NCBI GenBank assembly: GCA_965153355.1
Contig: OZ231126.1
Coordinates: 20,088,001 to 20,152,000, forward strand
Reading direction: 5' to 3'
Source: Flaccisagitta enflata
Lineage: Eukaryota
Length of the DNA: 64,000 nucleotides
The notes below the pieces were generated by a model. That model was not told the DNA's origin, searched no databases, and saw only the letters and a list, made by a program, of their open reading frames with translations. This document shows positions 14,263 through 60,293 of the stretch, piece after piece. A program made the translations under genes and the position numbers. Positions within the stretch are counted from its first letter, which is position 1; the number at the start of each line of letters is the position of its first letter.

Positions 14263-14313
<51 letters not shown>

Positions 14314-14591: not shown

Positions 14592-14635
<44 letters not shown>

Positions 14636-14676
14636 AAAAGAAAGAAAAAAATAATGAAAAGAAAAAGAAAAGAAAA

Positions 14677-14708
<32 letters not shown>

Positions 14709-24607: not shown

Positions 24608-25585
24608 ATGCCAAATCGAGACAAGAAGCCACTATGTGGCCATTGCAAGGCGGACACAAAAAAACAACAGGCGACGGCGATACCATGCACTGTCTGTACC
24701 ACATGGTACCACATCAGTTGCTTGACGGGGATGTCAGACAAATTCGTCGACAACTGCGACAAAAGCAACAGACTGAAGGGAGATTCAAATTTCTTCTGTC
24801 CCAACTGTCGCAACTTCATTCCAAACATGAACGGAAGCATCCACGATCTCCTTGAGAAATTCATCGCGTTGGAAGCGCGGGTCAACGCCACGGAGGCGCG
24901 TGCTAATGCGGCAGAGGCGCGAGCTAACGCCGCAGAGCTCGAGCTGCAACAACTGAGAGCGGAGGTTGAAAGGATGACGAACGGAACGGATCAGGTGAAG
25001 GAGAAAATCGTGGTCATGGAGAAAGAGATAGAAAACGGGACGGAACAAGCAAAGAAGGAAGTGAAGGAGGAGATGACGGTGGAAATGCGGGCCAGAGAGG
25101 AAAAGGCTGCCAACATCGTCGTCTATGGAGCAAAAGAGTCTGGCAAGGAAAGCGCCGCCGAACGAGTCGACGATGACGTGCAGTTTGTCAAGGAATTGGC
25201 GGAAAAACTCGAAATCGAGATCGTCGGAGAGGTCGAGGCAAAATTCCGAGCCGGAAAGAAACCGGAAGGAGCGGAAGCGGGAAGACCAAGACCGCTCATC
25301 GTGAAAATCAGCGACGACCAAACATGAGAGAAAATTATACAGAAAGCCAGATTTCTTGGACGAAGTGACGACAACTGGAAAAACGTGTATGTGGGACTCG
25401 ACCTGACAAAAAAGGATAGAGAGGAAGCGAGGAGCAAAGAGGAAAAGATGAAGGAGGAAGCAAAGAAAAAAACGGAGGATGAATTAAAAAACGGATCGCG
25501 GAAGGGAGGAAGATACGTGGTAGCGGGAATGAGAGGAAGAGAACGATGGCTGGCATGGAGGGAGGATCGACAAAGTCAGAGATAA
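24608..25585 (+). pseudogene. LINE ORF1 with PHD finger and coiled coil; one in-frame stop at 25325
   Basis: CGHC...CTVCTTWYHISC...CPNC, then ANIVVYG and RPRPLIVKI. Continues in frame as VYVGLDLT. Confidence 0.85.
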
Positions 25586-31082: not shown

Positions 31083-34000
31083 CTACCCAAACAGGTCCCA
31101 CCCTCTATACCCCACCCCATCCAAAATACCACCCCACTCAACCTCTCCTCCTTCCACCATCCTCCCCAACACGCCACCTATCAACACAGACGCCGCAAAA
31201 CACCCAGCCTTCTGTTGCCACATAGCCAGAATCCATTCCTCTTCCAACTGCTTCCTCAGCCTTCCCACAAACAGACTCCACACCCTTTCCACTGCCACTT
31301 CCACACTGCCGAGCACCAACCCCCGCATCGTGTGCACCGCCGACCGGAGCTCAAATCCCAACCTCCTCCAAAGTTGGTCCGCCGCTCTCTCCCCCAACGG
31401 CCCAAATGCCATCTCCCCCTCCACCACCTGCATGTCGACGACGCGGATGAGAGTCGGCTCCAACTTCCGCCACAGACGCCGAACCACCTCACACTCAATC
31501 ACCACATGCCACCTCTCCCTCGCCACTTCTCCGCACAACCTGCACTCCCCGTTACCATCCCTAACCCATGTGGCCATGTGTGGGGTCCAAAAATTCAACC
31601 CCACCTGTTTCCAAATATCGGAGCGAACACGCAAAGAACACGGCGTCGAATGTAGACGCCGCCATATATCGGGCCAATGCCCATCCAGAGACGCGCCGAG
31701 CGCCCGTTCCCACTTCTCCTCATAATGTCGAGAGCCACTGCGTGCCCTTCTACGGAAGGCCACGTAGAGCTCTCTGTAGGAGACCCTTGTGTGGTCCTTT
31801 CCCTCTTCGGATATATCGAAGAGGTAGTGAGGCTCACTCAAGGGCATTTCGGGAGCAATACCACGAAGGCGGGCCACCTCGTCCCACTTGCCACGCCCAC
31901 CCAAACCCAGACCGGACAACATCCACAACGAACGAACAGACGTCACATCCCGAAGAACAAGCCAAGGGACAGAGCGCAGGGGGTGCCCATCAGCACCCAC
32001 TATCTGCACATTATGGAACAACCGACTACTTGCACGCGTACCCCTCTCCGTTACCACCTTTGGTCCTAACTCCCCCCAGGCCTTTAGTGCTTCTCTATAG
32101 AAAGCACTGCCGACCTTTTCCATCACCCTCGCCTCTGCGCCTAACACCTCCAGGCCTCTCCATCCCCATCTCTGGTCGCCTATCATTTCCGCCGCCAAAA
32201 CTCGGGGGAAAGACCCCCGCGGCATTGCCAAAAGGCGACATAACCACGCGACCCTCTGTGCCTTGACCTTATCCTTAACATCAACAAGCTGCGCACCACC
32301 ATACTTGTACGCAGCCTTTAATCGGTCACGGCACACCTCTTGTCTTCCTCTAAACACCCACTCCGCAACCGCCTTCTCCACATTCCCACAGCCACCACCC
32401 AGCATATTGCAAGGTGGGGACCATATCTCAGTCCTATACCACAAGCGCTAATATAGCAACACATTTGCAACCATCACCTTGCCCAGCTCAGATAATGGGC
32501 GCGACTTCCACGCCTTGAGCTTAGCGTGAATGGATGCAAATTGTGCTGTGAAATTGTCACCGGCGCAGGTGGTTTCTCCTATCCACACACCCAGCACCCT
32601 CACCCTGTTGTTTCTCCAAGCAAAACCAAACGGCCTGTCTGTCCTTGCCCTCCAGGGACCTATCCACAAGCCCTCCGTTTTAACTACATTCAACCTCCCC
32701 CCCGAGGCGGCCTCATAGAGGCGCACCTCGCTCATGAACTGCCGCATCGACGCATCAGACGTTAAAAACGCCTGAGTGTCGTCGGCGTACTGGCCGATTT
32801 TCTTCTCTACCCCAGAAACCCTTACCCCTCTTATCCGGGGATTCCCCCTTATCTGACTGGCCAGTACTTCCGCCACCATCACATATATGTGACTGGACGG
32901 AGGGTCACCCTGACGGGTGCCCCTATCTAGCCTTATCTCATCGCTGAAAAACCCATTTATCAAAACCCTGGAGTGCACCCCATTATAGAACACCCTTATC
33001 CACCTCAAAAACCCCGGCCCGTACCCCATCCCACCCATTACCTTAAGCATAAAGCCGTGGTCTACTCGGTCAAAACACTTCTCCTGGTCAAGACAGAGTA
33101 TAGCAGCCGGTGTTTCAGTGTTATCACAATAATCTACAACATCTTGAAGGATATGCAGATTAGTTGTGATACGACGACCTGGAACACACGTCTGATCCTC
33201 ATGAATGAGCTCCGGCATGACCTTCGACATTCTCCGTGCGCTCACCCTACTGATGATCTTGTAGTCGGCGCCAACTAAGGTGACAGGTCGGTAGTTGCCA
33301 ACCTCTAGTTTGTCACCCTTTTTATATAGCAACCGAATCACACCACCACGCATACTGGCAGGCAAGCGACCACTCTCGTATGCGCACTCAGCTACACCCT
33401 TGAAGTCGCTGGAAAGGTCGGCCCAAAAGAACTTCCAGAATTCGGCAGGGAAGCCGTCCTCTCCCGGCGCCTTACCGTTCTGGAGTGTCCTAAGTGCCTC
33501 CCCCAGCTCCTCCACAGTCATCTCTCCCTCACACATTTCGCGGGACTCGCGTGACAGAGTCTTTGTCAGTCGGTCCAGTAACTGGTCCTGCACGTCCGGG
33601 TCTGTCCCTTCGCTTGTAAACAGGTCCGTATAAAATCTGTACGCCACGTCCAACACCCCTTCTGACCCATATTGCACCATCCCCTGCCTGTCTCTCAAGG
33701 CGTAAATCAGGTTCCTGCCTAACCTGCTTTTTTCCATCTTACTGATATACGCCACTCCTGGTTCCCTTTCTGCAAAATTGGGCAACCTTGCCCTTACCCT
33801 GTGCCCCTCCGCCTTCCGTTCCTCCTCCTCCTTCAACAGTCCCACCACTCTTTCCAACTCACTCCTCTCTCTGTCACCCGCCCAACCATACACCACATCC
33901 CATTCCAACCTCTTCCTCTCTTCCTCCAACCTTCGCACATACTCCCTCCTCGCTCCTGCTTTCTCCCTACTGTATTCCACAGTCACAAGACGCCACACCT

Positions 34001-34886
34001 CTTTCGCCCAGTCCCACCACTCTCCATCGTTACCAAAACCCCCCTTCCCTTCTCTGACCTCTCTTATTTTACCCCTTAGAAGTTCAGTGTAAGACCTGTC
34101 TCTCAGCAGGCTCACATTGAACTTCCAATAGCCTACCCCTTGTCTGACCTGGTCCTCTATCTCAACCTCAAAGACCTTGTGCCCGCTACTGACCCCATCT
34201 GCCCAAAAGTAGCGGCACCCTTTCACCCTTCCAGCCGTCACTCCGTCCAAGTACATCCTGTCAATCCTACTCCTGTGTAGCCCCTGCTCGTATGAAAAAA
34301 CAACGTCCGTGTTTCCGTCCACTCTAAAAGCGTCACATAGACCAGTCCCCTCAAGCACACTGGCCATATGACGGCCGCAAGCAGCCTCCCACGTGCTTAC
34401 AGCGCCCCCACACCTATCCAAGCCATCCACCACAAAATTCCAGTCACCCATCATTACCACCGGCATACTGTCATCCACGGCCACCTCCAGGCTCCGAATG
34501 AGCCCCGGAGTACCAGCCGCCCCTGGGTAGCCGTAGACTACCACAAGGTCCATTTCCCACAAAAACACCACACTCCTCACTCTTACCACCATCAGCCTGC
34601 CAGCACTCAACACCCTTTCATTCACGACCTCAAACTCACGCGAAATGACCAAGCAGACACCCGCATACGTATCCCCCTCCGCGTGTCCTGAGTGCAAGAC
34701 ATGGTGAGATAACCGCATGTCTTGCATTGGTTGGCACAACTGCTCGATATCCGAGCAGTGTGTCTCTTGTAGGGCAACGGCCCCAATATCAGACCCCCAC
34801 TGTATATAAGAGAGGACCCAAGAACCCTTGTATCGGGCTCTTGGTCCCCCTCCCAATCCATTGGGGTTATACGTCAGGAAACGCAT
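31083..34886 (-). pseudogene. Tx1-like ORF2 (APE-RT-CCHC) with one in-frame stop at 32448-32450
   Basis: LQETH, GDWN, SRIDR, GKAPGEDGFPAEFW, GNYRPVTL, LDQEKCFDRVDH, RQGDPPS, QYADD, CRLC-x8-H-x4-C. The two listed ORFs are in the same frame. Confidence 0.93.
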
Positions 34887-36126
34887 AATCGGAGGAAAAA
34901 AGAAACACCAGCCGCGCCAACACTACATACCAGGGCCAAAAAAGGCAAAAAACGCGCTCACCACCATTGCTTGCCAAGGCCAACAATTACTCCCATACTA
35001 CCCTTATAGGCAGATGAGAGCACTTATCAACCCCCCCAAGCAACCATGGTAAGCACAAGATAACCAACCAACCTAACCATTGCTACCAAGCCATGACCAG
35101 AGGCGACTCTAGCCTACCCTAGGGCCGGCCAGAATCGACTATAGACACGGCAAAGCAACAATTTTTAGGAAGGGGGGCTAAAAATACACAAAAAAGGCAG
35201 AAAAAAACAAAAACGGAGCCAAAACCGAAAAAGGCCAAAACCACCAACTGTTCCCCCCCCTACTGCCATCCAATGCCAATGGACGATTTCGGCCCACTCT
35301 AAGATAGGCCAAGATCGACCAAGGTCAAAGTAGGGCAGCAATGAGTGGGAATAGAAGGCAGCACAAAAAGGCAGAAAGGCAAAAAAGGGCGCCCCAACAG
35401 TGGCGAGAGAGAAAACAAAGGCCCCCCACACTAACCAAGCATGGCAGGACCCCCTCCCGCTATTGTCCGAGCGGGAAACCCGCGCCAAACCTAAACCAAA
35501 CCAACCGGATTATTAGTGGCGATTCTGATGGCCCAAAACAGCTGTTTGGGTGGCCAGCCAATCAGGTCTCTCAGTCCACATCTACCTAACCAGCGGCCAA
35601 CCAATCAGAGTAAAGTGACCATCCATCTCGCCAGTAATAATCCGCCCGGAGGTTATATAAAGCAAAACGGAACCAGAAAAGCAAACGCGCGAGGCGTAGC
35701 AGCCAAACCAGGCGAGGAAGAAAACGACGAAAAAAGACGAAAAAGGAAAAGGAGAAAAAAAACAGAAAAAGACAAAACGAAAAAGAAGCCGGAACAAAGA
35801 CGAGAAAGGCAACCAAGCAAGCAACCACGGGGAAGAAAACCCAACTCAATTCAAAGGTGAATTGAATCAAGCCCTCTTCCCAAGCAACAACGACGACGAC
35901 AAAAGGCCAAGATGGGGGAAGTATCGACCAAGCAAGCAAGCGACCAAGCGAGCAACCAAGTGACCAAGCTGACCAACCAAGCCAGCCGCCAATCAGGCGA
36001 CCTGGCTCTCAAGTGAGCGGGCGATCAACCTAGCAAGCGAAACGACCAAGCAAGCAGGCCTTCCCCCTACCCATCAACCAAGCAACCAACCGGGCGACCA
36101 AGCGAACGACAACAGGAGGGGGGGGC

Positions 36127-38703
36127 CTAAAGTCCTCCCTTTCCTCCCTTTTGCCCACCTCTGGACTGTGCCCTGCTCTGGCGCTGCTGCTGTTGGCCTG
36201 GCTGTTTTAGCAAAGCAACTAATTCACGCTGGCTAATGCTCGGCACCTCTTTAGCGTCCCTACTGACACTCAAATTCCTCTTCGCGTTACCATTCATCTC
36301 ACCATCGGAGTCAAGAGTTTCATCGCCTCTCGCTCTCTTCAAAGAGGCACTGCGGTGCCTCGCGTCCTTGTTTTGGAGTCGAGGGATGGCCATTTTTGGA
36401 GCCGTCGATCCGGAGTAGGCCGACATGGCTGCGCTGCCAAGGGCCTGCAGTCTCGCCGAGAGATGCTGGAAGGAAGGTTGGGGGGCTGCTGCTGCTGCGC
36501 CCAGCAACTCGGAGGGTGCTGCTGCTGCTGCAGCCGCCGCCGCGACTGGTGCTGGTGTCACGATGACCGCGACATGGCCGGATGAGAGCGACGGTGAGGC
36601 GCCAAGAGCGCCGTCCGCGATGCTGTGGTTGATGCTGATGCTGTTGTTGTTGCTGTTGAGGCTGGAGACGCACGAAATCATCTCCGGTGTCAGGGCGAAT
36701 GAGCCACTTTCGACGGAAGATGGGGGATCGCCGCCTCCTTCCTTTCCGTGTGGGGGGGTCGAAGTCGACGTCGCCACAAAGCTCTGGGAGAGGTTGAGGA
36801 GAGCCGCCTCTGCCATGGCCACACTTTTTGCCACTGCCGCCTCCTCCACTTCAGCTCTAATCGCTGCCGCCAATTCCTCCTCCTCCTTCTCAGAAGCCGT
36901 CAGCTTCTCCAAGGTGGCTGCTGCTCTTGCTGCCTCGTCCTCCTCCTCCTCCACCTGGCTGCCCCAACTGACGTTGCCTTGGAGTGTGTCGTCGCCTTCT
37001 TCAACTGGGACCACCACCTCCGTTGCTTCCGCCACTCTCTTCTTCTTCTTCTTCCTCCTCCTCTGTTCCTTTGGAGCCTGTGAGGATTCAACTATATCCT
37101 CCTCCTCCTCCTCCTCCACGTCCCCTCCTCCTTCTGCAAGACTGGAGAGGGCATCCTGCGTCGATGGCGCTGCTGATGCTGCTGTTGATGAACACGGGGC
37201 TGCCGCTAATGGAGACGATGATTGGCCGGCCACTGGTGGTTGCTGCACTGCTGCTGCTGTCGAAGTCGTTGGTGATGGCGCCGGTGCAAGTAGCGGTGGC
37301 GCTGTTGCTGCTGCAGATGATGATGATGAAGTTGGAGGGAGTGTTGCTGCTGCTGTTGACGAAGTTAATGTAGCAGATGTGGAAGATGCCGAGGCCGTTA
37401 CCACTGCTGCATATGATGGCAACGTCGCCATCGGCGTCGTCGCCACATCTCCCGATGGCGAAGCATAAGGCGGGCATGCAAACTCCTCATGCAATCGGGT
37501 GCATCGCATGCATCCGACCTTGTGATGGCGGTCCGAGCACCCGTCGTACGGATTATCGGCCACCTGGAAAGAAACTATCGCGTCCTTCCCCATCTTATCA
37601 TTAACATCAGTTCTCACCTTCCCCATCACTTTTCGGGTTCCACTGGCGGAGTAGTGGACCCCATCCCTGTCGAGATCATCAAGAGCGAAGACGAGCGTTT
37701 CGAGGTTGATGAAGGTGCAGCCTATCTTTGATGCCGCTCGCTTCGCCTCCGCACGGGTGAAGCGACGGTAGTCGTACTCCGGGCCGTGGCAGATTTCGCC
37801 GACAAATGGGTCCACAATGAAGATGGAGCGATCGCCGTTGTTAAGGGGTGACAGCACCTTACAGAGCTCCTCGAATTGGTGCTCCACCATCTCCTTTGCG
37901 TCGTCAAAATCACGGCCGTTGTTATTACGGCCCACGGACACGATTACAATTTCGCCATGAGGAAGGATGGATGAGTCATTGTTTATGTGGTTCGCCACAT
38001 GCCCAATTTTGGCGCCGGGGATGGCGTCGACACGCATCGAAGCGTCATCCTTCAGCATTCTCATGATGCTATCGCCGAAGAAGAGGATCCTGGGCGGGGT
38101 TGCTGTTGCCGATGCCACCGCCCCATTCCTCCGTCTGCGACTGCCGCCTCCTCCGTTGCTACGCTGCTGCCAACGTGGGCACTGCCCATCCTTGTGCGTG
38201 TCGTCGCACTGCCTGCAATCGAAGGGTTGCTGCCTATACACAATCTTATAGGTGTACTCCACCCCTTCATCCGACGTCCACTTGTTGAAGCGAGGAAGGT
38301 GGCGACTTCCAATCTCCACCAATGCCTCCCTTACACCATTGTAGATGCCAGTCGCCTCCTCATGCTCCTTGCTGACCGTTGGTTGCACGATGACGCATCC
38401 ATAATCTCGCATAAAGGCGTCGAAGTATTCGTCCCCTACCATCACCATTTCTCCTTCATACGTTTGAAAAAACTTCACCCATGTAGCAGGCTTGTTCGAC
38501 TTTCTCCTCCTCATCGGGATCGTCGTCTTCGTCCTTCCTTTCTCCACCTTCAGCTCAAACTTCTCCAACACCGCCGCCGCTTCCTTCGTCCTCGCTGAGA
38601 CGTTAAAAACGCCGCGTTTCCTGAAGGCGTCGGTGATAACGACGTTGTTGAGGATCGTCGATCCATGCTGATCTTTGATCTGCTCCCTGAACGCCTTCGC
38701 CAC
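36127..38703 (-). CDS. LINE ORF1: zinc knuckle, SGNH/GDSL esterase, second knuckle, low-complexity tail
   Basis: CRQCDDTHKDGQC; FFGDSIMR...IPGAKI...VGRNN...DGVHYS; CMRCTRLHEEFAC. Start codon unclear. Confidence 0.82.
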   Translation of the reverse strand: MAKAFREQIKDQHGSTILNNVVITDAFRKRGVFNVSARTKEAAAVLEKFELKVEKGRTKTTIPMRRRKSNKPATWVKFFQTYEGEMVMVGDEYFDAFMRDYGCVIVQPTVSKEHEEATGIYNGVREALVEIGSRHLPRFNKWTSDEGVEYTYKIVYRQQPFDCRQCDDTHKDGQCPRWQQRSNGGGGSRRRRNGAVASATATPPRILFFGDSIMRMLKDDASMRVDAIPGAKIGHVANHINNDSSILPHGEIVIVSVGRNNNGRDFDDAKEMVEHQFEELCKVLSPLNNGDRSIFIVDPFVGEICHGPEYDYRRFTRAEAKRAASKIGCTFINLETLVFALDDLDRDGVHYSASGTRKVMGKVRTDVNDKMGKDAIVSFQVADNPYDGCSDRHHKVGCMRCTRLHEEFACPPYASPSGDVATTPMATLPSYAAVVTASASSTSATLTSSTAAATLPPTSSSSSAAATAPPLLAPAPSPTTSTAAAVQQPPVAGQSSSPLAAAPCSSTAASAAPSTQDALSSLAEGGGDVEEEEEEDIVESSQAPKEQRRRKKKKKRVAEATEVVVPVEEGDDTLQGNVSWGSQVEEEEDEAARAAATLEKLTASEKEEEELAAAIRAEVEEAAVAKSVAMAEAALLNLSQSFVATSTSTPPHGKEGGGDPPSSVESGSFALTPEMISCVSSLNSNNNSISINHSIADGALGASPSLSSGHVAVIVTPAPVAAAAAAAAAPSELLGAAAAAPQPSFQHLSARLQALGSAAMSAYSGSTAPKMAIPRLQNKDARHRSASLKRARGDETLDSDGEMNGNAKRNLSVSRDAKEVPSISQRELVALLKQPGQQQQRQSRAQSRGGQKGGKGGL

Positions 38704-39566
38704 CCACGCCTAACCACTGACGATCCAGGTCTTACAAACTAGATACGATCTACTGCACGATCAAAGTGATTCTCGTCTCCAATAGATACGAGAAGAGATA
38801 GCTATAAATTGATTATTAGATATAACTAGATATCGATTTCCGGTACGATTCATTATTTTTTTCATAGTTACATATTATCAATAAATGTTTACCATTTCCT
38901 AAATAAGGTGTTGTGTGTGTGTGTGTTTGTGTGTGTGCGCTTTTGTGCGTGTGTGTGTGTGTGTTCCTTTTAGAAGTGCTCTTAGGTCGCTTATCATAGT
39001 AAATCCATATTGAACATACAGTAGAGTCGCTTTTCTTGTATTTGTTATCAATTTGGAGAAATCTATTTTTGAAATCGTTTTTATACCAATGGAAAACGAT
39101 CTTAGATAAAAATTGGAAAAATTTCGAATTTGAGACAGGATACTTTACATTTGTAACTGTTTAAAAGAAAACCAGTCGGTATGAAACTGTTTTTTAGTCG
39201 CGTGCTACGCAACTTTACACCCCGCTTTGTTGGTCCGTGGGTCCGTCGGTTCGTCCGTCCGTCACACTTTACTTTTTCGGCGTTTCTGGGGTTTTTGACT
39301 ATACCGCTCCTGCCCAAATGCTCCACTGACCTCAAATATGGCGGCACGCGACTGGGGTACCCGTGTATCCGGCCTTGTTTTAATTTCAGACATGAATAAT
39401 TCGTCCATGGCATGAATGAATATCGAGTGAAAGACATTGCAAACGTAAGAAAGCATGAGCATGAGCCAGTCATTCAACCTCTTTTGTCTGCTCTTTTACT
39501 GTTACCAATTTTGGGTGATTGCCCACCCAAATCTGACTGAAAGAATCGAACCTCTCTCTCTGTCTC

Positions 39567-41853: not shown

Positions 41854-42362
41854 TTGATGACATCCATAAGGTGGTCATGGATGCCCTGATAAGAATTTTC
41901 GCGGACGATACAAAAGTCGCACTCAAAGTGGAAAACGATGATGATAGAAAAAAGATGCAGAAAATCATCGATAATCTGGTGGAATGGGCGAAGAAATGGG
42001 TGATGGAATTTAATGTGGCAAAGTGCAAAATCCTCCACATTGGTCGTAAAAACCCTAATTACGAGTACTTTATGGATGGAGAAAAAATAAAGGAAGATGA
42101 CGAGGAAAAAGATCTGGGCGTGTAGGTTGACACTTCGATGAAGCCAAACAAACAATGTGCAGCTGCAGCAAAGGCCGCAAATTTTGCATTGGGCCAAATG
42201 CAAAGGGCCTTCCATTACCGAACAAAAAGTACTCTCGTCCCAATTTACAAGACTTTCATCAGGCCCAAGCTTGAATTCGGAGTAGCGGCGTGGAATCCAT
42301 GGCTGGAGACGGATAGAAAGGCCCTCGAAAAAGTGCAAGAGAGGATGATTAGACTTCTATCG
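41854..42362 (+). pseudogene. CR1 ORF2, piece 2
   Basis: Resumes DDIHKVVMDALIRIFADDTK...FNVAKCKILH...EKDLGV...RPKLEFG...LEKVQERMIRLLS. Confidence 0.92.
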
Positions 42363-43306
42363 CACCATGATGTCACCTTGGGGGGGTGAGGCCGAATGAA
42401 TCACCACAGACAGCTTTAATGATGTTGAAACGTAATCCGTTGTCAATTTTTTGATGCGGCTGCTAATATGGCGAAAATCGAATTCTGTTGTTTATAGCTT
42501 TGTCGCTAACTTGTAAAAAATTTTAAGTCGAGAGTTTTTGTAATTCTCAGTAATGTGCTAATTCTAAAGATCTGATTCTAACGCTCAATTCAAGATTCGG
42601 ATTCGGCTTCCATATGAACACGTTTCACAACTAAATACTACTGGGGACTAAAAAGCACTGTAGATGAATGGACAAGGAACAATTTTTTTTTTTTTTTTCA
42701 AAACATAAAAGCCTGAAATTGTGATTGACTCTTCGGTGTTGCTACTATAAGCACCGATCTTCCGCTCAATCAAACCAAAGGGGAAGAAGCCATCTTGGCC
42801 AGAATCGCCAGAATTGTATTTGCTCGTATCGCGAATTTGAGTAAAATAATTTTTTGTGTTGCGATATCATCTTTGGCAAAATCAAAAATCCAGACTGAGC
42901 GATGGTTGCGTTATTGCCACCGCCGCCCCCGCCGCCTCCGGCCACTCCCGCCGTCGAACTAGTTGAGCCGCCAAAAACGCCACCGCTGCCGCCAGAGTTG
43001 GTCACTGAAGCCGCTTTAACCCACGCGCCAATCGTTGGCGCCCGACGCTTCTTCTTTTGTCTTTTCAAATACACGTTATCGGTGGAGCCAACGGCGATAA
43101 TTCCGGATTTCGACGCCGCCGCCGCCGTTCACGCGATTCCATCGCCACTTCCACCTCCCGCTCCTCCACCGCCGACGTGATGACGCCGCCGCGAAGATCC
43201 AGCGCTTTTGTCGGAATCGGAAGCGCCGGTCGTGACTCCGCCGCCGCCGCCATTACCGGTGGCGTTTTTCTTCTTCTCCGTCTCCGATTGTCTTTGTTCG
43301 GCGTTT

Positions 43307-43998
43307 ATTTTTAGTCGCGTGTTACGCGACTCTACACCCCGCTATATCGGTCTGTCGGTCGGTTGGTCCCCTTTTTACTTTTTCGGCGTTTTGCAGCGGC
43401 CCCAAGGCCGATGTCCTGTAGAACACAGGGGGGAATTTCCATACGTCCGTCCGTCCGTCCGTCCGTCCCCCCCCCCCGCCGTTGGCCATCAACACCTCAA
43501 ATTTGCCCTCCAAGCCCTCAATTTAGCCTTTGAGGCCTCAAATCAGCCTTCCAGGCTTCAAACCAGCTCCCCCCGCCTCAAATTTGACCTCCAGACTTCA
43601 GATCTACCCTCCAGACCTTCAATTAGCCCTCCAAGCATCAAATTAGCCCTCCATGGCTCAAATTTGCCCTCCAAACCTCAAATCTGCTCTTTAAGCCTTA
43701 ATTCTGCCCTCCAACCTTCAAATATGCCTTCAGTCGCCTAAATCAGTTATCTAAGACCTAAAATATACCCCCTCAGGACGTATGGAAATTCCCCCCTGTG
43801 TTCTACAGGACATCGGCCCTTTGGGGCCGCTGCCCTGCTCTCACTCCACTACTTCACTGAATTACCCCCAGCAGGGCATCGGGTACCGCTGACCATGTGC
43901 GATCCTTGGATGACTAGTTGAGCATACGGCTTCTGCCCAGATGCCCTAGTGACCTTCTCCAGTATTGCTCCTGCCCACCCGCACGCGACTAGGGTAGC
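43307..43998 (+). mobile_element. HINE-type element containing a nested asymmetric inverted-repeat element (~43393-43920)
   Basis: AGTCGCGTG...CACGCGACT subterminal IR and 3' GCCG-TGTATC-CGGC hairpin. Nested element has arms GATGTCCTGTAGAACACAGGGG/CCCCTGTGTTCTACAGGACATC. Confidence 0.82.
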
Positions 43999-44048
43999 CG
44001 TGTATCCGGCCTTGTTTTTGTAATCGTCAAAATGTCTTCTTCGTCTTC

Positions 44049-44169
44049 TTCCACGTCGTAGCGCCTTAGACGACCAAAGCCAAAGGAGATTCCTCTGTTG
44101 CCTTCGATTGCATCATCAATGCGCATCCAATTGAAGTAGTGAGATGTAAATCTGTCTGCCTGATGTTTC

Positions 44170-44218
<49 letters not shown>

Positions 44219-44645
44219 GGTTCCGCATAAACGTAAAGCTTCATCGATCGGACAAATATCAACTCTCATCCAAAGAAAAACATCGACATCTGATCATCGC
44301 CAATCCATCGACCACCAATCTCCGCAGCGCGCGTCTCACCGTAGAAGCGGCGCCATCTTTCGCTTTTATCATTAAGCTGCCCGTCGTCTCACTGGTACAT
44401 TGGGTGAAGCTTTAACGCTCCCTTTTCATTCTTCTGATACTCCTAGTTTAGAAGTCACGTGGTACAAAAATTGTGTCGCAATCAAAAGACGACAATGACG
44501 AAGTAATCAAAATTACTCGTGATTACAATTTAATACTCCAAGATGTGTCAGAGGCACAGAAGGGCGTTCATCAATGCGTCACTACAAATTGCGCTTCCGT
44601 CCACATGCTCTTTAAAAACTCCTTGCAGTTGCAGATCCTTCATTA
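44049..44645 (+). pseudogene. decayed tandem immunoglobulin I-set domains (cell-adhesion-molecule type)
   Basis: FHVVAP*TTKAKGDSSVAFDCIINAHPIEVVR / WFRINVKLHRSDKYQLSS..HLIIAN..RSARLTVEAAPSF / GEALTLP..VTWYKN / NLILQDVSEAQKGVHQCVTTN. Contains stops, frameshifts and an intron relic at 44146-44218. Confidence 0.78.
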
Positions 44646-44929
44646 GTCCATTTTGTCTCGGAACCACTTTGCTGTGTTTAATCTAGTTGTTGTTGTTGTT
44701 GCTATTGTTGTTAATGTTGTTGTTGTTGTTGTTGTTGTTGTTTTTGTTGCTGTTGTAGAAGTTGTTGTTGTTGTCATTGTTGTTGTTGCTTTGATTAATG
44801 AAAAATATGGTTGCCCCTCTGGGTAAAATCAATTGGTTGCTGTCACCGCGGAGAGTTGATTGGACTAAATAGAAATAAGGAAACCGAACTTAGCTTAAAA
44901 ACCAAAACATAATTTGAAACTCATCATCA

Positions 44930-45110
44930 TCACTGCCTTAACCTTAAGCAGCACTTGTTTCCTCATCTTCACTCTCAAATTCTTCAAAATTTGGCTCTGA
45001 ATCACAATCAAATTCACTTTCACTACAGCTATTGCACTCGCTATCATATTCTTCATCTTCACTGTCGGAACCAAAAGCATTATCGGTTTTGGCTGAATCG
45101 AGTAAGTAAG
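44930..45110 (-). pseudogene. acidic coding relic, possibly a transposase N-terminus (piggyBac-like)
   Basis: LDSAKTDNAFGSDSEDEEYDSECNSCSESEFDCDSEPNFEEFESEDEE. Composition only, no catalytic motif. Confidence 0.3.
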
Positions 45111-45168
45111 CACTTCGGGTAAATGGAGATATTTAGATTCGCATTGACTACGTATAAGAGAAGAACTA

Positions 45169-45587
45169 CACTCTTTATTTTATATAAGGACCAGTAAATT
45201 TTTTCTGAGGCTGGGATGTCCTTAGATTTTAGTAAATTTCAGGCTGAAATGTCCTTAATATTTTGTTATGATTTTCTTATGATTATTTTCTATGTATTGA
45301 AATAATTGATGTTAAGTATCATGAAACACAAGTTAGATATGACAATAATTGCTTTGTAGTTGTTCTTTATAGAACATTATATCATTTAGCAAAGATGAAT
45401 GCTATCATTTCTTTTAAAATTAATTATTTTCTTTAAGAAGCTGCGTAAAGACAATCTAGATTTTGAATCAAAAAAATTTTTTAAACAAATCTGAGGCTGG
45501 GCTTTGTCCTTAAAATGTCCTTAATTTTTGACAAAATTTCAGCCTCGATGTCCTTATAAGCTTTGTCCTTACTCAAAATAAAGAGTG
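45169..45587. mobile_element. Tc1/mariner-type MITE
   Basis: TA|CACTCTTTATTT...AAATAAAGAGTG|TA. Related shorter copies near 7800-7955 and 51516-51630. Confidence 0.8.
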
Positions 45588-45629
45588 TAAATATATCTTC
45601 AATGTTAGCATTGCGAGAACACCCTCTGG

Positions 45630-45985
45630 CGACGATAGGGACCGACTCAACGATAGTGGCCGACTCGACCAGAGGGGCCGACTCGACCATAGGGGCCGAC
45701 TCGACCATAGGGGCCGACTCGACCATAGGGGCCGACTCGACCATAGGGGCTGACTCGACCATAGGGGCCGACTCGACCATAGGGGCCGACTCGACCATAG
45801 GGGCCGACTCGACCATAGGGGCCGACTCGACCATAGGGGCCGACTCGACCATAGGGACCGACTCGATCACAGGGGCCGACTCAACCATAGGGGCCAACTT
45901 GGCGATAGGGGCCAACTCCACCATAGGGGCCGACTCAACCATAGAGGCCAACTTGACAATAGGGGCTGAATTGACAATACGGGCC
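45630..45985. repeat. 18-bp minisatellite GACCATAGGGGCCGACTC
   Basis: Direct periodicity of 18. Confidence 0.95.
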
Positions 45986-46516
45986 ATCTCGATGTTCATG
46001 CACTCAGAGTTAAAGTCCGGGGACATAAAGGTCAACTTCAGCGCAGACAGTTAATATTTCTTTTAATCTATAGTATTTTATATACATTATGGTCAATCTT
46101 TTTTTCAGCGATGTCACTCATTAGGTTGGGAAGATATTTCACTTTTCCTTCTAGATCTACTTCCTTACTCGGATGAAGATGTATGTAAAGGTGATTTTTA
46201 TGGTGCGATTTTTCTTGTCATCATTGCTGTCTTACTATGCTGTAGGGAGTTACGCACTGGCGTTACTTCTTACCTTATCAATTTTTCCATGATACTTAAT
46301 TGCATTACAAAGCCTCATGCATGTAGTCAGATTTACCTTCATTAATGTGATGAACTGTCTGAGCATCTGTGTACCCGTCCCTCCATTTATTTTTTTTTTT
46401 TAGCCAGTTTGTCTCTCTTTCTTATTCGCGTATGGATACATTGGAATGTTAACTCTGACTTTGAGAAAATGTCGGTGGAGATGAGTTTTGAAAAGAAGTC
46501 ATAGAATAAGTGTTAC

Positions 46517-49232
46517 CACCCTGTTAATCCATCTGGTAAAAGATTTACGGCAAAGACACCTCTCACAACCACTTCCTCATGCTCAGTAACTGCGTGGAGA
46601 TTTCCGATAAAATACGGGTAAAAAAATTCGCTTACAAACTTTTCTTCCAACACCCCTTTTGTCATAGGTTGTAAGTACAGGCCACATAATGCAATTTCCA
46701 CTAGATAAGGTAACTTCTAAAGCCTTTATCTCCTAAACGAATTGAGCAAATGACCTCAATTTAGGCTCATTTTAAAGAAGTTTGTCTGCTCTTTAAAATG
46801 AGCCCAAATTGAGGTCATTTGCTCCATTCGTTTAGGAGCAACAGTCTTCCAAAGTTGATGTTATTTTCAGAAAAATGGCAAAGACCCTTGCTAGTTTGAG
46901 AGTTTGTATCTCTGAGACAAATTGAGCAAATGATCTAAACTTGGGCTTTTTTTAAAGAGCTGACAAAGCTTTAGAAAACGAGCTCAAGTACAACTTAAAG
47001 AGCGTGTATCTCTCAAACAAATAGAGCTAAAGACCTCAACTTAAGCATTAAAATGAGTTCAAATTGAGATAATTTGCTCTATTTGTTTAGGAGCAACCAT
47101 CTTTTAAAGTTGATGTCATTTTCAGAAATATGCAATGATGCTCAAAATCATGGAAGCTTTTATTTTCAGTCTGTCTGTCTGTCCATCTCTATGTAAGCCC
47201 CCCCCCCTGATGCCTTTCCAGCCCAAATCTGGCTTTCTGGGCCCCTAAGGGGAGGAAGTCCTGTAGAACACAGGGGGACTTTTGTTTGTCCATTCGTTTG
47301 TTTGTCCATTCGTCCCCCCCTCATAGGACCTCAAATCTGGCCTCGGTGACCTAAAATCTGGCTTCTGTGACCTAAAATCTGGCCTCTCAGGCCTCAAATT
47401 CAGCCTATCAGGCCTCAAATCCAGCCTCTCAGGCCTCAAATCCAGCCTCTCAGGCCTCAAATCCTGCCTCCCAGGCCTCAAATCCAATCTATCAGGCCTC
47501 AAACTTGGCCTCTCAGGCCTCAAATTAGGCTTCTCAGGCCTCAACTTAGGCTTCTCAGGTCTCAAATCCAAATTCTCAGGCCTCAAACCTGGCCTCTCAG
47601 GCCTCAAACTAGGCCTTTAAGGCCTCAAATTAGCCATCTAAGCCTCAATTTATTGCTCTCAGGCTTCAAATCAATCCTCTGACCTTTCAAGCCTAAATCT
47701 AGCTCTCTTCAGCCTCAAGTCGGCCCTCCGAAGCTTTAGATTGGCATTCTCAGGCTTTTGAAGGCCTTCAGTCAGCCCTCTATAGCATCTCATCCACTTC
47801 TTCAGGCAGGATGAACGAAAGTTCCCCTGTGTTCTACAAGACTTCATCTCCTTCGGGGCCGCTGCCTTGCTTCCCCTCACTCAAATTCACAATCACTCAA
47901 AGCAGGGCAACGGGTATTGCTGACCAGTCTTTTGGACTAAAACAAGTGACGCGGGATTATAATCTTGTTGCGGACAGGTGGGCAGCGGCATCCACACCCC
48001 CCATCCACACCCCAAACCCTATCCCACACACACAAACATACACAATTGTATCTAAAACACTTGTTATCCCACTTTTCAACTTGATGACCCCACACCAACG
48101 GACCAACAGACTGACAGACAAAGCCTCAAGATCATAAGGTTGCCTGTCCACAATTAAAAAAAGCCTCCCAAACTTCTTATCAGGCGTTTAAGACCTCATA
48201 TTATTCATTTATGACCTCATATCAGGCTTTGTCAGCCTCATCAATGAGTGGCTAGTTGATGCAATTCGCAAATTTGCCCATCTATCAATTTTCCTTCACG
48301 ACTAACCAACTAACCAATCAAGTGACAAAGTCTCTTTTTGATGTGCGTTGGCGCACATAAAAATCTTTCAAAATTTTTTTGATTGCGTCCATGTGACTAA
48401 CCAACCTGCTTTGTCCATCCATACATCCATCTGTCTATCTATCCATCCATCGATCGGTCAAGCTATACTTTTTTTGTTTCTTTTTGGCGTTTATGGGTGG
48501 TTATTACAATACTGCTGCCACCCACCAGCACGCAACTTAGCATTTTCTGAAAATAACTTTAACATTGAAAGACAGTTGCTCCTAAATGAATTAAGCATAT
48601 GTCCTCAATTTGAGCTAATTTTTAAGAGCACTGTCTGTTCTTTAAAATGAGCCCATGTTGAGGTCTTAAGCTCTGTTTGTTTAAGAGATGCAAGCTCTTT
48701 AAGTTGTAAGGGTCTTAGCCATTTTTCTGAAAATAACGAATTGAGCAAATGACCTAAACTTATTTTACGATTTAAAGAGCTCTGTCTGTTCTTTATAATG
48801 AGCCCAAGTTGAGTTCATTTGCTCATTATGTTGAAGAGATGCCTACTCTCAAAGTAGTATGGGTCTTTGCCATTTTTCTGAAAATTACATCAACTTTGGA
48901 AGACTCTTGCTCCTAGATGAATTGAGCAAATGATCTCAACTTGGGCTCATTTTAAAGAGTTTTGTTTGCTCTTTAAAATGAGCCCAAGTTGAGGTAATTT
49001 GCTCAATTCGTTCAGGAGATATAAGCTTAAGAAGTTACCTTATCTTATGGAAATTGCTTCATGTGGCCTGTACTTACAACCCATAACAAATGGGGCGTTG
49101 GAGGAAAAGTTTGTAAGGGAATTTTTTTGCCCCTATTTTATCGTTAGTCTTCATGCAATAACTGAACACGGGGAAGTGGTTTTGAAAGGTGTCTTTGCCG
49201 CAAATCTTTTACCAGATGGAATTAACAGGGTG
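46517..49232. mobile_element. long-TIR non-autonomous element with CAC ends (Chapaev-like)
   Basis: CACCCTGTTAAT/ATTAACAGGGTG, with arms similar for >350 bp. Flanks TTAC/ATAC match 3 of 4. Confidence 0.7.
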
Positions 49233-49394
49233 ATACCTTTTTCTTCCAATTTTTTAAAGAAAAATGTTTGTGAAACATCATAATGAGTAATGCTGAAGAC
49301 TTGTGAATACCACAGTTTTATTCAGCGCCCTCACTTTAGTCAAATTGCAAAAAATCTTTTTCGAGTGAGCTTTTTTACCCCCGCTGATATCGCC

Positions 49395-50445
49395 GCCTAT
49401 GATAGGGGCCGACTTGTTGATAGGGGCCGACTTGACAATAGGGGTCGACTTGTTGATAGGGGCCGACTTGACAATAGGGGCCGACTTGACGATAGATAGG
49501 GGCCGACTCGTCAATAGGGCCGACTCAATAAGGGCCAACTTGACATAGGGGCCGACTTGACATTAGGGGCCAACTTGACAATAGGGGCCGACTTGACAAT
49601 AGGGGCGACTTGACAATAGGGGCCGACTTGACGATAGGGGCAGACTTGACAATAGGGGCAGACTTGACAATAGGGGCCGACTTGACAATAGGGGCCGACT
49701 TGACAATAGGGGCCTTGACAATTGACAATAGGGGCAACTTGACAATAGGGGCAGACTTGACGATAGGGGCCAACTTGACTATAGGGGCAGACGTGACGAT
49801 AGGGGCAGACTTGACGATATGGGCCGACTTGACGAAAGCGGCCGACTCGACAATAGGTGCCGACTTGACAATAGGCGCCGACTCAACGATAGGGGCCAAC
49901 TGGACAATAGGGTCGACTCTACAATAGGGGTTGACTCGACAATAGGGGCCAACTTGACAATAATGGCTGACTCAATGATAGGGACCAACTCGATGATAAG
50001 GGCCAACTCGACCATAGGGGCCGACTCGCTTATAAGGGCTGACTCAACCATAAGGGGCCAACTTGATGATAGAGGCTGACTCTACAGTAGCGGCCAACTC
50101 GTTGATAGGGGCCAACTTGACAATAGGGGCTGACTTGACCATAGGGGTTGACTGAACAATCGGGGCTGACTTAACAATAGGGGCCGACTTGACAATAGGG
50201 GCCGACTTGAATACAGGGGCCGACTTGATGATAGGGGCTGACTTGACGATAGGGGCCGACTTGACAATAGGGGCCAACTCGATGATAGGGGTCGACTTTA
50301 CAATAGGGGTTGACTCGACAATAGGGGTTGACTCGACGATAGGGGCCAACTCAACACTAGGGGCCGACTTGACAATAGGGCCAACTAGACGATAGGGACG
50401 GATTTTGCAATACGGGCCGACTCCACTAAATGGGCTAACTTGAGC
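49395..50445. repeat. 18-bp minisatellite GACAATAGGGGCCGACTT, same family as 45630-45985
   Basis: Direct periodicity of 18. Confidence 0.95.
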
Positions 50446-51635
50446 GACACGACAACATGGGGCGCCTGTACAGAAAGGGGCGAATATACAAAAAGACCAA
50501 TGGCAGCTTTAATAGGCCAATGGCAGCCTGGATGGGTGGGCCGGAGCGAAGAATCTGAAAAAGTGACTTTGGGATGGACGGCAGGACAGACGGACATACA
50601 CACACAGTTACACACACACACATATACACATACACACATAAAGGCGGAAATGCGACAAGGGAAACCAACATACCAACATTTTCATCCACTTTTTTATCAT
50701 CTTTTTTTTAGCTTATAACTCAGTTGTTTTTCAAAGGATTTGCAGAAAATTGGTGACGGTTAGAAAGATCTTGAAAAGATCTTTAAAATGGGACCAATCT
50801 GGCATTTATAGCTTCATCCGTTTAAAAGATACAAGCAAAACAAGATTGACTGTCTAAAAAATGGGAAAATTCTATGACCTGTACCCCATGAAGGTCAAAC
50901 GCAGTTTTACGCAAAATCTGGCCTCAGGAACATTTGAAAACTGGTGAATTCTCTCTATCATACCAATATGCTATATAAAACTGCAAAACATCTATCAGCA
51001 CTGTTGATATCAACCCCAAATTGGTGAAAACATATGTGTGTGACGATAATTATGAGACAGATGTTAGAGACCTGGGGTTGATCTAGAATGAAAGAAAATT
51101 CAAAAATCTTTAAAATCAGTTGAACAAAAAAAATTTGAATTCCACTCTTCCACTCCGCTTCAATAGGGTGCGGGTTTTTTTTTTATTCGCGTAGTATTTA
51201 CGGCAGCATTAGTCGCAGACGGGTGGGCAGGAGCGGAAAACCTTGAAAAGCAACTGTTTCACGGACGGACCGATTGACCAACCAACCAAACGAACGAAAA
51301 GTGTCTTATAGAGTCGCGTGTGCGCAACTAAAAAAGAAGAAAGAAAGGGAGAAGCAAAAGAAGAAGTATAAATGAAAGAAAAAGAATAAGGCGCAGGCGC
51401 ACATATGTGCACACACACGCGCGCGAGCACACACACACACACACGCACACACACACACACGTGGTCGAGATAACATAACATTAGGGTTGAGTAGTAATGT
51501 TGTCCAACTTTCATATACACTTTATTTTTTATAAGAACCTCACTTTTTTTCTGAAGCCTTCAAAAGAGATAGAGATAGCTACTAGTAAAATAACTACAAC
51601 GTTCTTAATTTTTGAACAATTTCAAGGCTTGATCT

Positions 51636-51734
<99 letters not shown>

Positions 51735-52430
51735 TGTATACCCGTGTAAGTCAGGAAATAGTGTATAAATGTCCGTTTCAACTCATTCAATCAGTTGGTT
51801 GAAATGGGACCCTCACTTTCACACAGCATCAAGGTAGCGATCGACACAGATTTATCTCAGCGTCAGTCAATGATGAAGAGCCTAAAATTGCCAGCGTTTG
51901 GTAAAATTCTCCCAAGAAAATGATTTTTAGACATTCTAGAATTTAACGACGATTAAATCGAGCGAAAACAGGCTGTGAGAAATAAAAAGAAAAACAAAAT
52001 CAGCGTTCAAAAAGTCGGACCTATCCGGGAAATGTCGTCTGAACATTGTACAAAGGATATTAAAGGCTCGTCAACGAAGATGAACGCATCGTCGGCCCGG
52101 ATCGGCTCAGTAGCAGATGGCAACAATTTCAGGAAAAAATACTTCTCGACGTGTTTGAAAAGCAATCAATAGTTCACGATAACAAGCACAAAAAGTAAGC
52201 TATATACCACCAGATTTCGTTGTGAAGCGTGTTCACATTGAGGGATAACGGGATAAGGAAAGTTACGTAAAATCTTAACTTGGGCCTAGTTTGCGGCATA
52301 TATCTCATATAGCCTAATGAGCTCTTGCGTGGTGACTAGGGGTTGTATAACGATACTGAGGATATATCTTTTACATTGCCAAGTACAAAACCGTGGATTC
52401 TGGAGGACCTCCTTTGGTGACATCATAGTG

Positions 52431-53031
52431 TATCGGACGCAAAAGGGAACACGTATGAGGAGAAGTCGAAGGACGTAGGCCTAATGTAGGCCTAACGTAG
52501 GCCTAACGTAGGCCTAACGTAGGCCTAACGTAGGCCTAACGTAGGCCTAACGTAGGCCTAACGGAGAGAAGAGAAAGAGGCGACGCAATAGAGGCATTCA
52601 AGACGCTGAATGGCTTCAATCACGTGGACAAGAATCGATGGTTTGACATAGAGACGGAGGAGAAAAGACCAACAAGACAGAATGTGATGATCACCGAGGA
52701 AGGAGAGAAACGAAAAAACAATGTGCTAAGAGTAGAGACTGCTCGACTAGAAATCAGAAAGAATTTCTTTAATATAAGGGCGGCAAATGTCTGGAATAAA
52801 ATTCCAGACGAAGTGAGAGAAAAGAAGACTGTGAACGGATTCAAAGCGGCGTATGATGGGTGGAAAAGTGGAAATCCAAAAGGAGTATAGTAGCACGGAG
52901 ACAAAAAAAAACTCAAAAAAGATGAGAAGAGAAAAAGCTACTATACACACGGATGAATGCGTCACGAGGCCCCCGCAATGCAAACAGGAGTTCGCCTAGG
53001 GGCGCTAAAGCCTTACCTAACTTACCTTACC
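52431..53031 (+). mobile_element. CR1 piece 3: ORF2 C-terminus, 3'UTR and (CTTAC)n-like tail
   Basis: SDAKGNTYEE...ERRERGDAIEAFKTLNG...RKNFFNIRAANVWNKIP...VNGFK, then tail CCTTACCTAACTTACCTTACC. Confidence 0.9.
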
Positions 53032-57950: not shown

Positions 57951-58656
57951 GTTTGTTTACAAACATTCCACGACTCTCAACAGGAATGAGCCCATTTTGA
58001 TGAGGCCAGATGCATAACATACCAGCAAGAATCAGACAATCGTCGATGCATTCGAGAGAAGAGTAACTTCGACAGAATCGGAGATCAACACCTGTCGGTA
58101 ATGAAGGGACTTGATATCAAAACCCCCGTCTTACAAATACAGCACCAACGACAACAACAAACCGAGCAACCTCACAAGAACGACTAGATAGAGCTTACAG
58201 GCTTACAGCAACCTCAACAAAAAAAAAAACAACGACAATAACAACAACGACAATAACAACAACAACAGAAACAAAAAAAGTAACGATTACGGCAAACGTA
58301 ACCAACAAACGAAACCAACGGTACCAACCATTTCTCTTAATCCCACCACCAACCTTTACTCCAAACGTCTTTACATGGGTCGTAGACTTCGACTGTCTTC
58401 ATGTTTTTGCATCCGGAAGCGATTCCTCCCGCTACCACGACGGTGCCTTTACAAGCCGCTGCCGCCGCAGCCGCCCGCCGTTCCCGCATCGCGTGCGTGT
58501 ACAACCAACGATCTTCTGCCGTGCTGTAAATCTCCGCCTCTTTTAAAGGTTGTCCGTCTGGACCGAAACCGCCAACAGCGTAAATGTAACCGTCCAGGTG
58601 ACAGCAAGAAAAGTCTGTGCGCTTGCTTTGGAGGGATTTGAGAATGTAAGACGTTG

Positions 58657-58723
<67 letters not shown>

Positions 58724-60293
58724 GCTCAGACAATTCATAATCTTTTTGTTTGCCGAGAAATATTATTGTTTTTTGCTGTTATTGTTGTTGTTGGTATTGT
58801 TGTTTGTGTTGTTGGTGGTGGTAGCGGGCTGGTCAGACATACAGAATTTGGAATAAGATGAAGTGAGAAGCGCCGATCTCCGGAGGGGCAGAAAAATTGT
58901 CGGAAAATCTTGGAAGAGAAAGACTGGGTGCGAGAGAGACGAGCAAGGCCGTATACACTTCCCTCCCAGTCGCGTTCGCAGTCGCGGTCGCGCGGACAGA
59001 TGGGCAGGAACGGAATGGCGAAAAAACGTTCACAATTAGTCATGGTTACGGACGGAAGGACGGACGAACCAACCTACAGACACAGCAACTTCTAGCCTCG
59101 CGTCTTCTCGACAAAGAATTGGAAAGGATGCCGGATGCAGGACGGGATGAAGAAATTGGATAAATAACAAGTGACGCTGGGTCACAATATTGTTGCGGAC
59201 GGTTGGGCAGGGGTATCCAACCCCCATCCACACCCCATGCCCCCCCCACCAACACACATACCTAAAAAAAAACATCTAAACCGCTCGTTTTTCCTTTTTT
59301 CGACTTGTGGGTTACGGATGGACGGACCGACGGACCGAACGACACGGCAAGGTGTAGAGTCGCGTGTCCGCGACTAAAAATGAAGGGCAGTCAGAAATGA
59401 TCAAAAAGAGCACAAAAAATCAAACGGCTGTGAGTTGGATAGAAATCGAAGCAATATCTGCATCAATAACTTAAATTGCATAATGCAGTTTTAAGATTTG
59501 TTTCTTGAATTGACAAACATTCGAGTTAAAGTCATATGAAAGTGAAGCTTTGTATTGAAAATGTGATGTTTCAGTGATATATAGCGATATTACCAACATT
59601 TAAAAGATGCGAAATACATCACTTATGTTTTATGCACTGTGCAGTCTTTAAAAAAGATGATTGCAAAGCATTTTATAAAAAGAGAAAAAAACATTGCATT
59701 GAGAAATAGTTTGAAGAATTTTGACCCGTCGGCCGTCACCTGCTGCTTAACACCAGTGAAAGTAGCTCGTTAAATCCTGACGTTGAGCTAGGTCAAGTGA
59801 ATCGGGACTTAACGTCATATTGCTGTGAATCATGTCTGGAAATTTGTGCTACTCAGCATAGTAGTTTGAATAATCTGTATGACCGGTGGTGGTTAGACTA
59901 ACGTCACCAAGATTCATTCAAATCCTTACTTCTTCATATTGGCGCAAGAGTGCCAATTTCCGGTGAGCACGTTGAACTTGAAGACTTTGTTGCTGCAGTG
60001 AGATTTAGGATCGCAGGGGTCGACGCCGCCGATGATGTAAATCTCCGTTTCCACGCGAACGACGCAGCAATGATGGCGAGGCTTGGGCAAGTTGGGAGCC
60101 GCCGTCCACTGCTTTAGGCGACCATTGAACGCGTTCATGGAACACGCGAACCAATAATCTTCCGGTCTGTTATGAAGGAATAACACTCATTATCGGAGAA
60201 AAGTGTTTTGGAATCGTTCATTGAAGGCCTCTTGATCTATTTCAATTAACTCGGGACTCGTTCTGAGTTGACAGCAGCGACAACATGGACAGC

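Follow-up and report, generated by a model that had tools for sequence, protein, structure and literature searches.

A probable Pack-type Transib with decayed host-gene cargo in Flaccisagitta enflata

A 10-kb element interrupts a CR1 frame

The window analysed here is a 64,000-nucleotide stretch of the Flaccisagitta enflata genome (assembly GCA_965153355.1, contig OZ231126.1, positions 20,088,001 to 20,152,000, forward strand; G000:C1:20088001-20152000 in our numbering). It contains a non-autonomous Transib transposon of 10,068 bp (copy E01, 42363-52430) loaded with pieces of two host genes, one coding for a CMGC kinase and the other for a protein with immunoglobulin (Ig) I-set domains. The element and its relatives were analysed across the 794-Mb genome (9 contigs, C1 to C9). 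The features of the window copy are collected in Table 1.

The element ends in 15-bp terminal inverted repeats (TIRs) and is flanked by a 5-bp target-site duplication (TSD). With up to 2 mismatches allowed, the TIR sequence matches nowhere else in the window, where 0.20 matches would be expected by chance on average. The left flank of the element matches RVT_1 (E 9e-6), corresponding to the reverse transcriptase (RT) of a CR1 retroelement. When the element was excised in silico, the CR1 frame was rejoined, with ERMIRLLS running into DAKGNTYEEK. The ends, the TATCG duplication and the boundaries that a sequence-only reading had drawn from the interrupted frame were thus re-found. To the right of the element, an 11-bp tandem array (8.3 copies, window 52473-52563) replaces coding sequence near DAGLT and breaks the host CR1 frame.

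The element belongs to a family of 30 copies

Genome-wide, the exact TIR was found 57 times as compared to 2 times for a reversed control. Twenty inward-facing TIR pairs were obtained, each spanning 5.1-13.3 kb. Among these paired copies, the TSD is 5 bp long in 16 and 6 bp long in 2, and is lacking in 2. Position 2 is an A in 14/16, the consensus is near CA.TG and the GC content is 41%, different from the GC-rich duplications of Transib. A search with the right-end DNA gave 42 matches and added ten copies whose TIRs are variant or damaged (A1, A2, E21, F1-2 and G1-5), which brings the total to 30. The TIR heptamer is CACYATG in the E, A and F copies and CACGATG at the left ends of the G copies.

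Copy E02, located 306 kb from the window copy, is 99.2% identical to it (9903/9983 columns). Because the two copies have different TSDs and different flanks, their near identity shows that the cargo-loaded 10-kb element moved again as a unit, and recently. The junction between kinase piece, filler and Ig piece is common to E01, E02, E06 and E12, which have the TSDs TATCG, CATAA, TAACA and CATCC, respectively. Some family ends are arranged otherwise: two left ends lie tail to tail (L068/L069, C8:6767547 and 6772454), an extra right end lies beside F1 (L103/L104), and G2 and G4 share a right flank (L112/L114). These arrangements are signs of rearrangement or segmental duplication.

Table 1. Features of the window copy (window coordinates) and the six-exon piece of the transposase-bearing copies
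Position	Strand	Feature
42358-42362		Left TSD, 5 bp, TATCG, within the CR1 RT frame
42363-42377	+	Left TIR, CACCATGATGTCACC; the end lying 3′ of the transposase
42378-42854	+	Left subterminal region; 92% identity to A1 over the first 330 nt; GAACACGYTTCAC motif at 42616, recurring inverted at the right end
42855-43311	-	Cargo 1, fragment of a CMGC kinase gene (last exon); resumes at 44017-44036 beyond a later insertion; donor G000:C9:48972921-48973888
43312-44016		Nested high-copy short repeats, inserted in a T-run within the kinase piece; absent in E19/E20, which keep Ig DNA
44037-44053		17-nt filler at the kinase/Ig junction; common to E01, E02, E06 and E12; no source found
44054-44609	+	Cargo 2, Sidekick-like piece, convergent to the transposase and holding two decayed I-set domains; donor G000:C5:19032564-19031785
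44054-44138, 44139-44219, 44220-44609	+	Parts of cargo 2: exon end, shortened intron, next exon
44610-44789		76-nt spacer (last 45 nt common to A1) and (GTT)n tract 3′ of the transposase stop
44790-45165	-	Transposase 3′ untranslated region and relic of the C-terminal acidic tail
45169-45587		Later TA-flanked inverted-repeat insertion, splitting the transposase relic
45590-45631	-	Transposase relic, ARGCSRNANIEDIF vs ARRCSRKANIEDVF in A1; stops at the array
45630-50422	+	18-bp tandem array specific to the family, in two parts (45630-45985 and 49402-50422) with a 3.4-kb nested insertion between them; insertion seen only in E01/E02
51731-52415	-	Right subterminal region, conserved and non-coding, on the 5′ side of the transposase; contains the motif at 52219-52234
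52416-52430	-	Right TIR, CACTATGATGTCACC
52431-52435		Right TSD, 5 bp, TATCG
L109:2929-3670 (A1) and L110 (A2)		C7-derived six-exon piece

The window copy carries pieces of two host genes

Taken alone, the two decayed I-set domains proposed earlier are weak (I-set E 0.03), but they align to a single host gene with 27/41 residues identical. Searching the genome with the Ig segment gave 18 matches, consisting of family copies and one other place, on C5, where the donor of the immunoglobulin superfamily (IgSF) sought by the sequence-only reading was located. This gene has a 1723-codon exon with I-set and FN3 domains (3 I-set and 12 fn3 in the 1647 aa scanned), followed by one further FN3 domain and a transmembrane stretch. 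It matches Sidekick-1 at E 1e-35, and contactin-2 scored higher; from its architecture alongside the Sidekick-1 match, we take it to be Sidekick-like. The 3′ exons of this gene occur twice, in the same frames and 12.7 kb apart (G000:C5:19012640-19014100 vs 19025370-19026778), reflecting either a recent tandem duplication or an assembly artefact.

The Ig piece keeps the order of the donor, exon end, intron and next exon. Since the intron is retained, the piece was copied from DNA. Its identity to the donor is about 81-83%, with 76 mismatches in 391 nt for E01. It is present in 6/30 copies, being long in E01, E02, E06 and E12 and reduced to 98 nt in E20 and 39 nt in E19. In the shared part, 14 of the 27 variable sites have the same non-donor base in all copies, which argues that the piece was captured once.

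The kinase piece is more widespread (9/30 copies). Its single match outside the elements is the C9 donor, presumably a MOK-like gene, with 81-86% identity over aligned columns, and 19 of its 113 variable sites have a non-donor base common to all nine carriers. Three of these carriers (E13, E16 and E21) have neither the Ig piece nor the transposase tail, a state that later deletion explains best. The kinase piece is co-directional with the transposase, whereas the Ig piece is convergent to it. Overall, the comparisons show that the C9 and C5 pieces were each captured once and then inherited by later copies, with the cargo decaying.

Could the Ig piece have been brought in by another mobile element, such as a Helitron or Helentron or a LINE (long interspersed nuclear element) transduction, with the Transib as a mere landing pad? 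The element is rich in nested insertions, a repeat that we assume to be Helentron-like lies 40 nt left of the Ig piece, and fillers for which no source was found flank this piece. However, that repeat did not bring the Ig DNA, because it sits inside the kinase piece, which resumes beyond it, and because E19 and E20 keep Ig DNA without it. The ends of the Ig piece show no TIR, hairpin, TSD or poly(A), and its intron is kept. Among the 18 matches, no free copy was found beyond family members and donor, and none lies in a Helitron. Helentron-type capture, which had been named beforehand as the finding that would overturn the Pack-type reading, therefore failed: the piece has no ends of its own and is present in sister copies. 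We consider the landing-pad scenario improbable.

Selection on the cargo, acting on a chimeric protein or on a decoy or regulatory RNA, was also weighed. Fixed differences to the donor are enriched at third codon positions (13/10/26 by codon position in the Ig piece, 1/5/13 in the kinase piece), and a 287-aa kinase-tail frame is still open in E20. However, a third-position excess is expected from synonymous change in a constrained donor alone, and the differences between copies are distributed as 13/6/12 for the Ig piece (E01, E06 and E12) and 30/24/40 for the kinase piece. The Ig pattern fits cargo that evolves neutrally alongside a donor under constraint. In addition, the E01 Ig piece has frameshifts, stops and in-exon deletions, and one third of the kinase carriers (3/9) lost both the Ig piece and the transposase tail. 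Functional cargo is thus very unlikely.

The stretch 51780-52400 had been claimed as a further coding relic. It is instead part of the conserved right subterminal region, where no frame is under purifying selection: the ratio of nonsynonymous to synonymous substitution rates (dN/dS) is 0.54-1.23 over six frames and three pairs in an alignment of 27 copies omitting E15, G5 and F1. A coding or Ig relic at the right end was ruled out on this basis.

Transposase-bearing copies identify the family as Transib

As candidates for the autonomous partner sought by the sequence-only reading, two transposase-bearing copies were found, A1 (C1:90288712-90303994) and A2 (C2, about 82515355-82532027), each 15-17 kb long. 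Both are predicted to encode a transposase of 719 aa, with no internal stop once two GT-AG introns are removed, and with the motifs GGDG at 276, VDGK at 390 and TEGSQE at 596. An acceptor-like site precedes the ATG, so a short upstream exon is possible. The three exons match Hztransib (PDB 6PQN) with E-values of 1e-19, 1e-18 and 7e-17, this being the sole significant match in PDB. With exon 1, neither a homologous-protein search nor a Pfam scan gave a match. A search of representatives returned 1010 relatives, a number that serves here solely to show that the family is large. The genome itself has at least a dozen other Transib-like frames (e.g. C1:73316384 and C3:32868232), several of them intronless, 717-771 aa long and 25-28% identical. 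A relative at 52% identity is open through intron 1 and broken at intron 2; the A lineage may have gained intron 1, this relative being without it.

Contrary to the earlier claim that the element holds no transposase, the window copy keeps the last ~70 codons of this gene, at 44790-45165 and 45590-45631 (minus strand), with 87% nucleotide identity to A1 and 41/51 identical aa. From these comparisons, we describe the window copy as a deletion/recombination derivative of a Transib whose whole transposase gene is found in A1 and A2, both ends and this last stretch having been kept.

A ProtoRAG/RAGL (RAG-like) identity, or a recombinase-like system handling Ig exons specifically, is suggested by the CACTATG heptamer and the 5-bp TSD, the heptamer being contained in published ProtoRAG TIRs, and by two matches to the RAG1-family profile PF12940 in the genome. 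However, heptamer and 5-bp TSD are described as common to Transib (PMC7204232). The transposase exons match Hztransib and gave no RAG1 or RAG1L chain in PDB at E<=1. Kelch, PHD and RING domains are absent from the 45 frames of A1/A2, and RAG2 (PF03089) had no match in the genome, a weak negative since the positive control was silent as well. The two PF12940 loci have no family ends. Finally, the Ig piece comes from one of at least six donor loci, is of I-set/FN3 type and is frameshifted. Because neither RAG2L nor a RAG1 N-terminal domain was found, the family is assigned on its predicted protein to Transib, and not to ProtoRAG/RAGL, by the criteria of Martin et al. 2020 (PMC7204232). The RAG-like identity claimed earlier is not sustained, and we regard it as extremely unlikely.

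The PF12940 profile search missed A1 and A2, which came from the right-end DNA search, and its two loci were rejected as family members. One of them (L071:1480-2622, G000:C6:12746544-12747683) is an open 380-aa RAG1-family frame (E 1.6e-12) with a C-terminal zinc knuckle and acidic tail and no family TIRs nearby; it may represent a single exon of a RAG1L/Transib gene, either domesticated or separate. The other, at C4:79499998, is broken.

The A-tract nonamer described for Transib is not present in the ends: GAAT alone is found, at positions 31-35 of both ends, vs AAAAAAATC. Because TIRs are reported to be labile within Transib, this nonamer is treated as a supporting and not a defining feature.

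The transposase-bearing copies carry other cargo at the same site

In A1, the interval from the (GTT)n tract that follows the transposase stop to the left end holds about 1 kb from C4:60527362-60528595 (82-88% identity). At the same site, A2 carries a 1.5-kb stretch from C1:19499532-19500902 (87-91%), to which 0.4 kb of C6 DNA (78-79%) is joined. On the other side of the transposase gene, both copies have a 740-nt piece made of six collinear blocks of C7:77409624-77420486 (82-97%), from which donor gaps of 0.27-4.9 kb have been removed. A high-copy repeat lies within L110:5100-7120, and the C7 donor was found by a search with a cleaner stretch. This piece appears to be spliced, RNA-derived host cargo that moved with a DNA transposon; an equally good reading is a retrocopy made by a LINE and inserted into the element. 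No poly(A) is present at its end, and a 198-codon frame is still open in A2. The donor is probably PSME4/PA200, a lead given by a PDB match at E 0.035 and an atlas value of 0.96 with low recognition. Together with C5 and C9, these loci bring the donors to at least six (C5, C9, C4, C1, C6 and C7).

Left and right ends are shuffled between copies

The 18-bp array is always in one orientation. It counts 14-99 units in 18/30 copies; G3 has 2 stray units and the other 11 copies have 0. Outside the 30 copies, the array was found at 3/45 further loci, each of the three with a family end, and none was found in the rest of the window. In 6/6 copies inspected, the subterminal motif GAACACGYTTCA is found 197 nt inward from the right end and, on the left, 241-256 nt inward from the end, as compared to 22-23 nt behind the heptamer for the A-tract nonamer of Transib (PMC1131882). 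In the G subfamily, the 3′ bases of this inverted motif (window 42616-42644 and 52219-52234) are changed at both ends. It is a candidate distant site for transposase or a host factor.

Trees of the left ends (30 rows) and of the right ends (29 rows, E15 being omitted for an insertion in its right end) are incongruent, and approximately unbiased (AU) tests reject the cross-groupings (p 6e-8, 0.016 and 6e-7). A1 and A2 group with the E01 lineage at the left end (92% identity), and apart from it at the right end (75-76%). The F copies combine G-type left ends with E-type right ends, and E07 and E08 show the reverse mix. Left and right ends have thus been shuffled between copies. Because the end trees disagree, the window copy is best described as an A-type left half joined, inside the last transposase exon, to a module made of the array and the right end.

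A Pack-type Transib and its proposed mode of capture

Overall, a Pack-type Transib, that is, a TIR element carrying host DNA (Pack-TIR), is very probably the best explanation of the whole. Family, donor gene and transposase-bearing partner agree with what the sequence-only reading had proposed under this name. Its claim of an element moving IgSF exons overstates a single frameshifted capture among at least six donor loci. The link to Ig looks incidental, the source being a gene of neural-adhesion I-set/FN3 type, and such a single decayed capture from a cell-adhesion gene says nothing on the origins of V(D)J recombination.

Transib transposase is described as binding CAC-heptamer ends, moving by cut-and-paste with a 5-bp TSD and mobilising non-autonomous copies in trans (PMC1131882). 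Mobilisation of the family would be due to an A1-type transposase. Captures would occur when the repair of a gap or stalled fork within the element switches template, in most cases at a single site beside the (GTT)n tract that follows the transposase stop. Such repair would also copy from other family members and so shuffle left and right halves.

Several observations weigh against the Pack-type Transib as formulated here. RNA reads gave 0 matches on the transposase exons and intronic repeats only (one polyA run, 6% of which was read). A1 has an imperfect 6-bp TSD, A2 has lost the first 6 TIR bases, and the two copies are not exact parents of E01, given their divergent right end. The Ig junctions show no clear microhomology, and fillers and later deletions blur the original junctions. 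No source was found for either of two fillers, the 17-nt one and the 67-nt one of E19/E20, for which a donor search gave no match. The C4, C1, C6 and C7 donors are located by coordinates only, and (GTT)n tracts occur everywhere in the genome. The shared internal segments of the E03, E04 and G groups show no obvious coding cargo among the translations listed, no donor search having been made for them. Inspection by eye for cryptic CAC heptamers at the cargo junctions gave nothing convincing.

Relation to known systems

The family resembles Transib (Hztransib 6PQN; PMC1131882) in its ~700-aa DDE transposase, its CAC heptamer and 5-bp TSD, its target preference, like CASTG/CAWTG/CARTG, and its few transposase copies among many non-autonomous ones. 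Autonomous Transibs are described as 3-4 kb long (PMC1131882), whereas A1 and A2 reach 15-17 kb, contain host cargo and are predicted to have two introns. The Nozomi and Kodama Transib derivatives are described as plain 1.4-kb deletions (bioRxiv 10.64898/2026.08.26.747230), from which the window element differs.

With the animal Pack-TIRs, including Ssk-FB4, the family shares host DNA in a TIR element, multiple copies distal to the donors and distinct TSDs, as in the FoSTeST class (PMC8277862). It differs from the elements described there by its multi-gene chimeras, transposase-bearing carriers, recurrent site, spliced piece and older captures (about 76-91% identity). In Tan et al. 2021 (PMC8277862), neither the main text nor the table of 370 Pack-TIRs contains the word Transib. 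In the searchable literature, we found no description of host-gene capture by Transib ('Pack-Transib'), Repbase reports and most subscription journals lying outside this search. With this family, the Pack-TIRs of animals would reach into a new superfamily and include chimeras of several genes.

Plant Pack-MULEs and Pack-CACTA elements keep introns and carry mostly decaying cargo. Another likeness is their assembly of fragments of several genes from different chromosomes (PMC5861414). They belong to another transposase superfamily; here, the host is an animal and the copies are far fewer.

The ProtoRAG/RAGL elements (PMC7204232) show CAC(T)ATG-type ends and a 5-bp TSD, and the position that RAG2L occupies in those elements, from the transposase 3′ end to the TIR, is taken in the present family by host-derived sequence convergent to the transposase. 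However, the transposase is here of Transib type, RAG2L and the RAG1 N-terminal region are lacking, and the cargo is partial, variable and decaying. In the standard model, the acquisition of a RAG2-like host gene by a Transib gave rise to the RAG transposon (PMC7204232). The family is an analogue, not a relative, of that putative event. It indicates that host-gene capture by Transib happens, more than once, in transposase-bearing copies and at the RAG2L-equivalent site. A broader proposal is that this Transib lineage is a recurrent gene-capture vehicle. Its transposase-bearing copies would acquire host DNA at a hot spot located from the transposase 3′ end to the TIR, which is the RAG2L position and, for the Ig piece, also matches RAG2L in its convergent orientation; they would likewise acquire spliced, mRNA-derived sequence that then transposes with the element. 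We hold this proposal tentatively, as possible but somewhat short of probable; if true, the lineage would be a living model of the missing step in which Transib acquires RAG2.

Other features of the window

Another CAC-ended element, with inverted arms of about 450 bp and the 4-bp TSD CATT, lies at window 12608-18795 and is presumably Chapaev-like; it is probably the first such element implied by the sequence-only reading, which counted the present one as the second. Retroelement-like frames of DIRS type (gag, RT and tyrosine recombinase, labelled by eye) are found at 182-4609, CR1-like frames at 24590-27531, other LINE frames at 31086-38709 and a kelch exon at 58340-58762.

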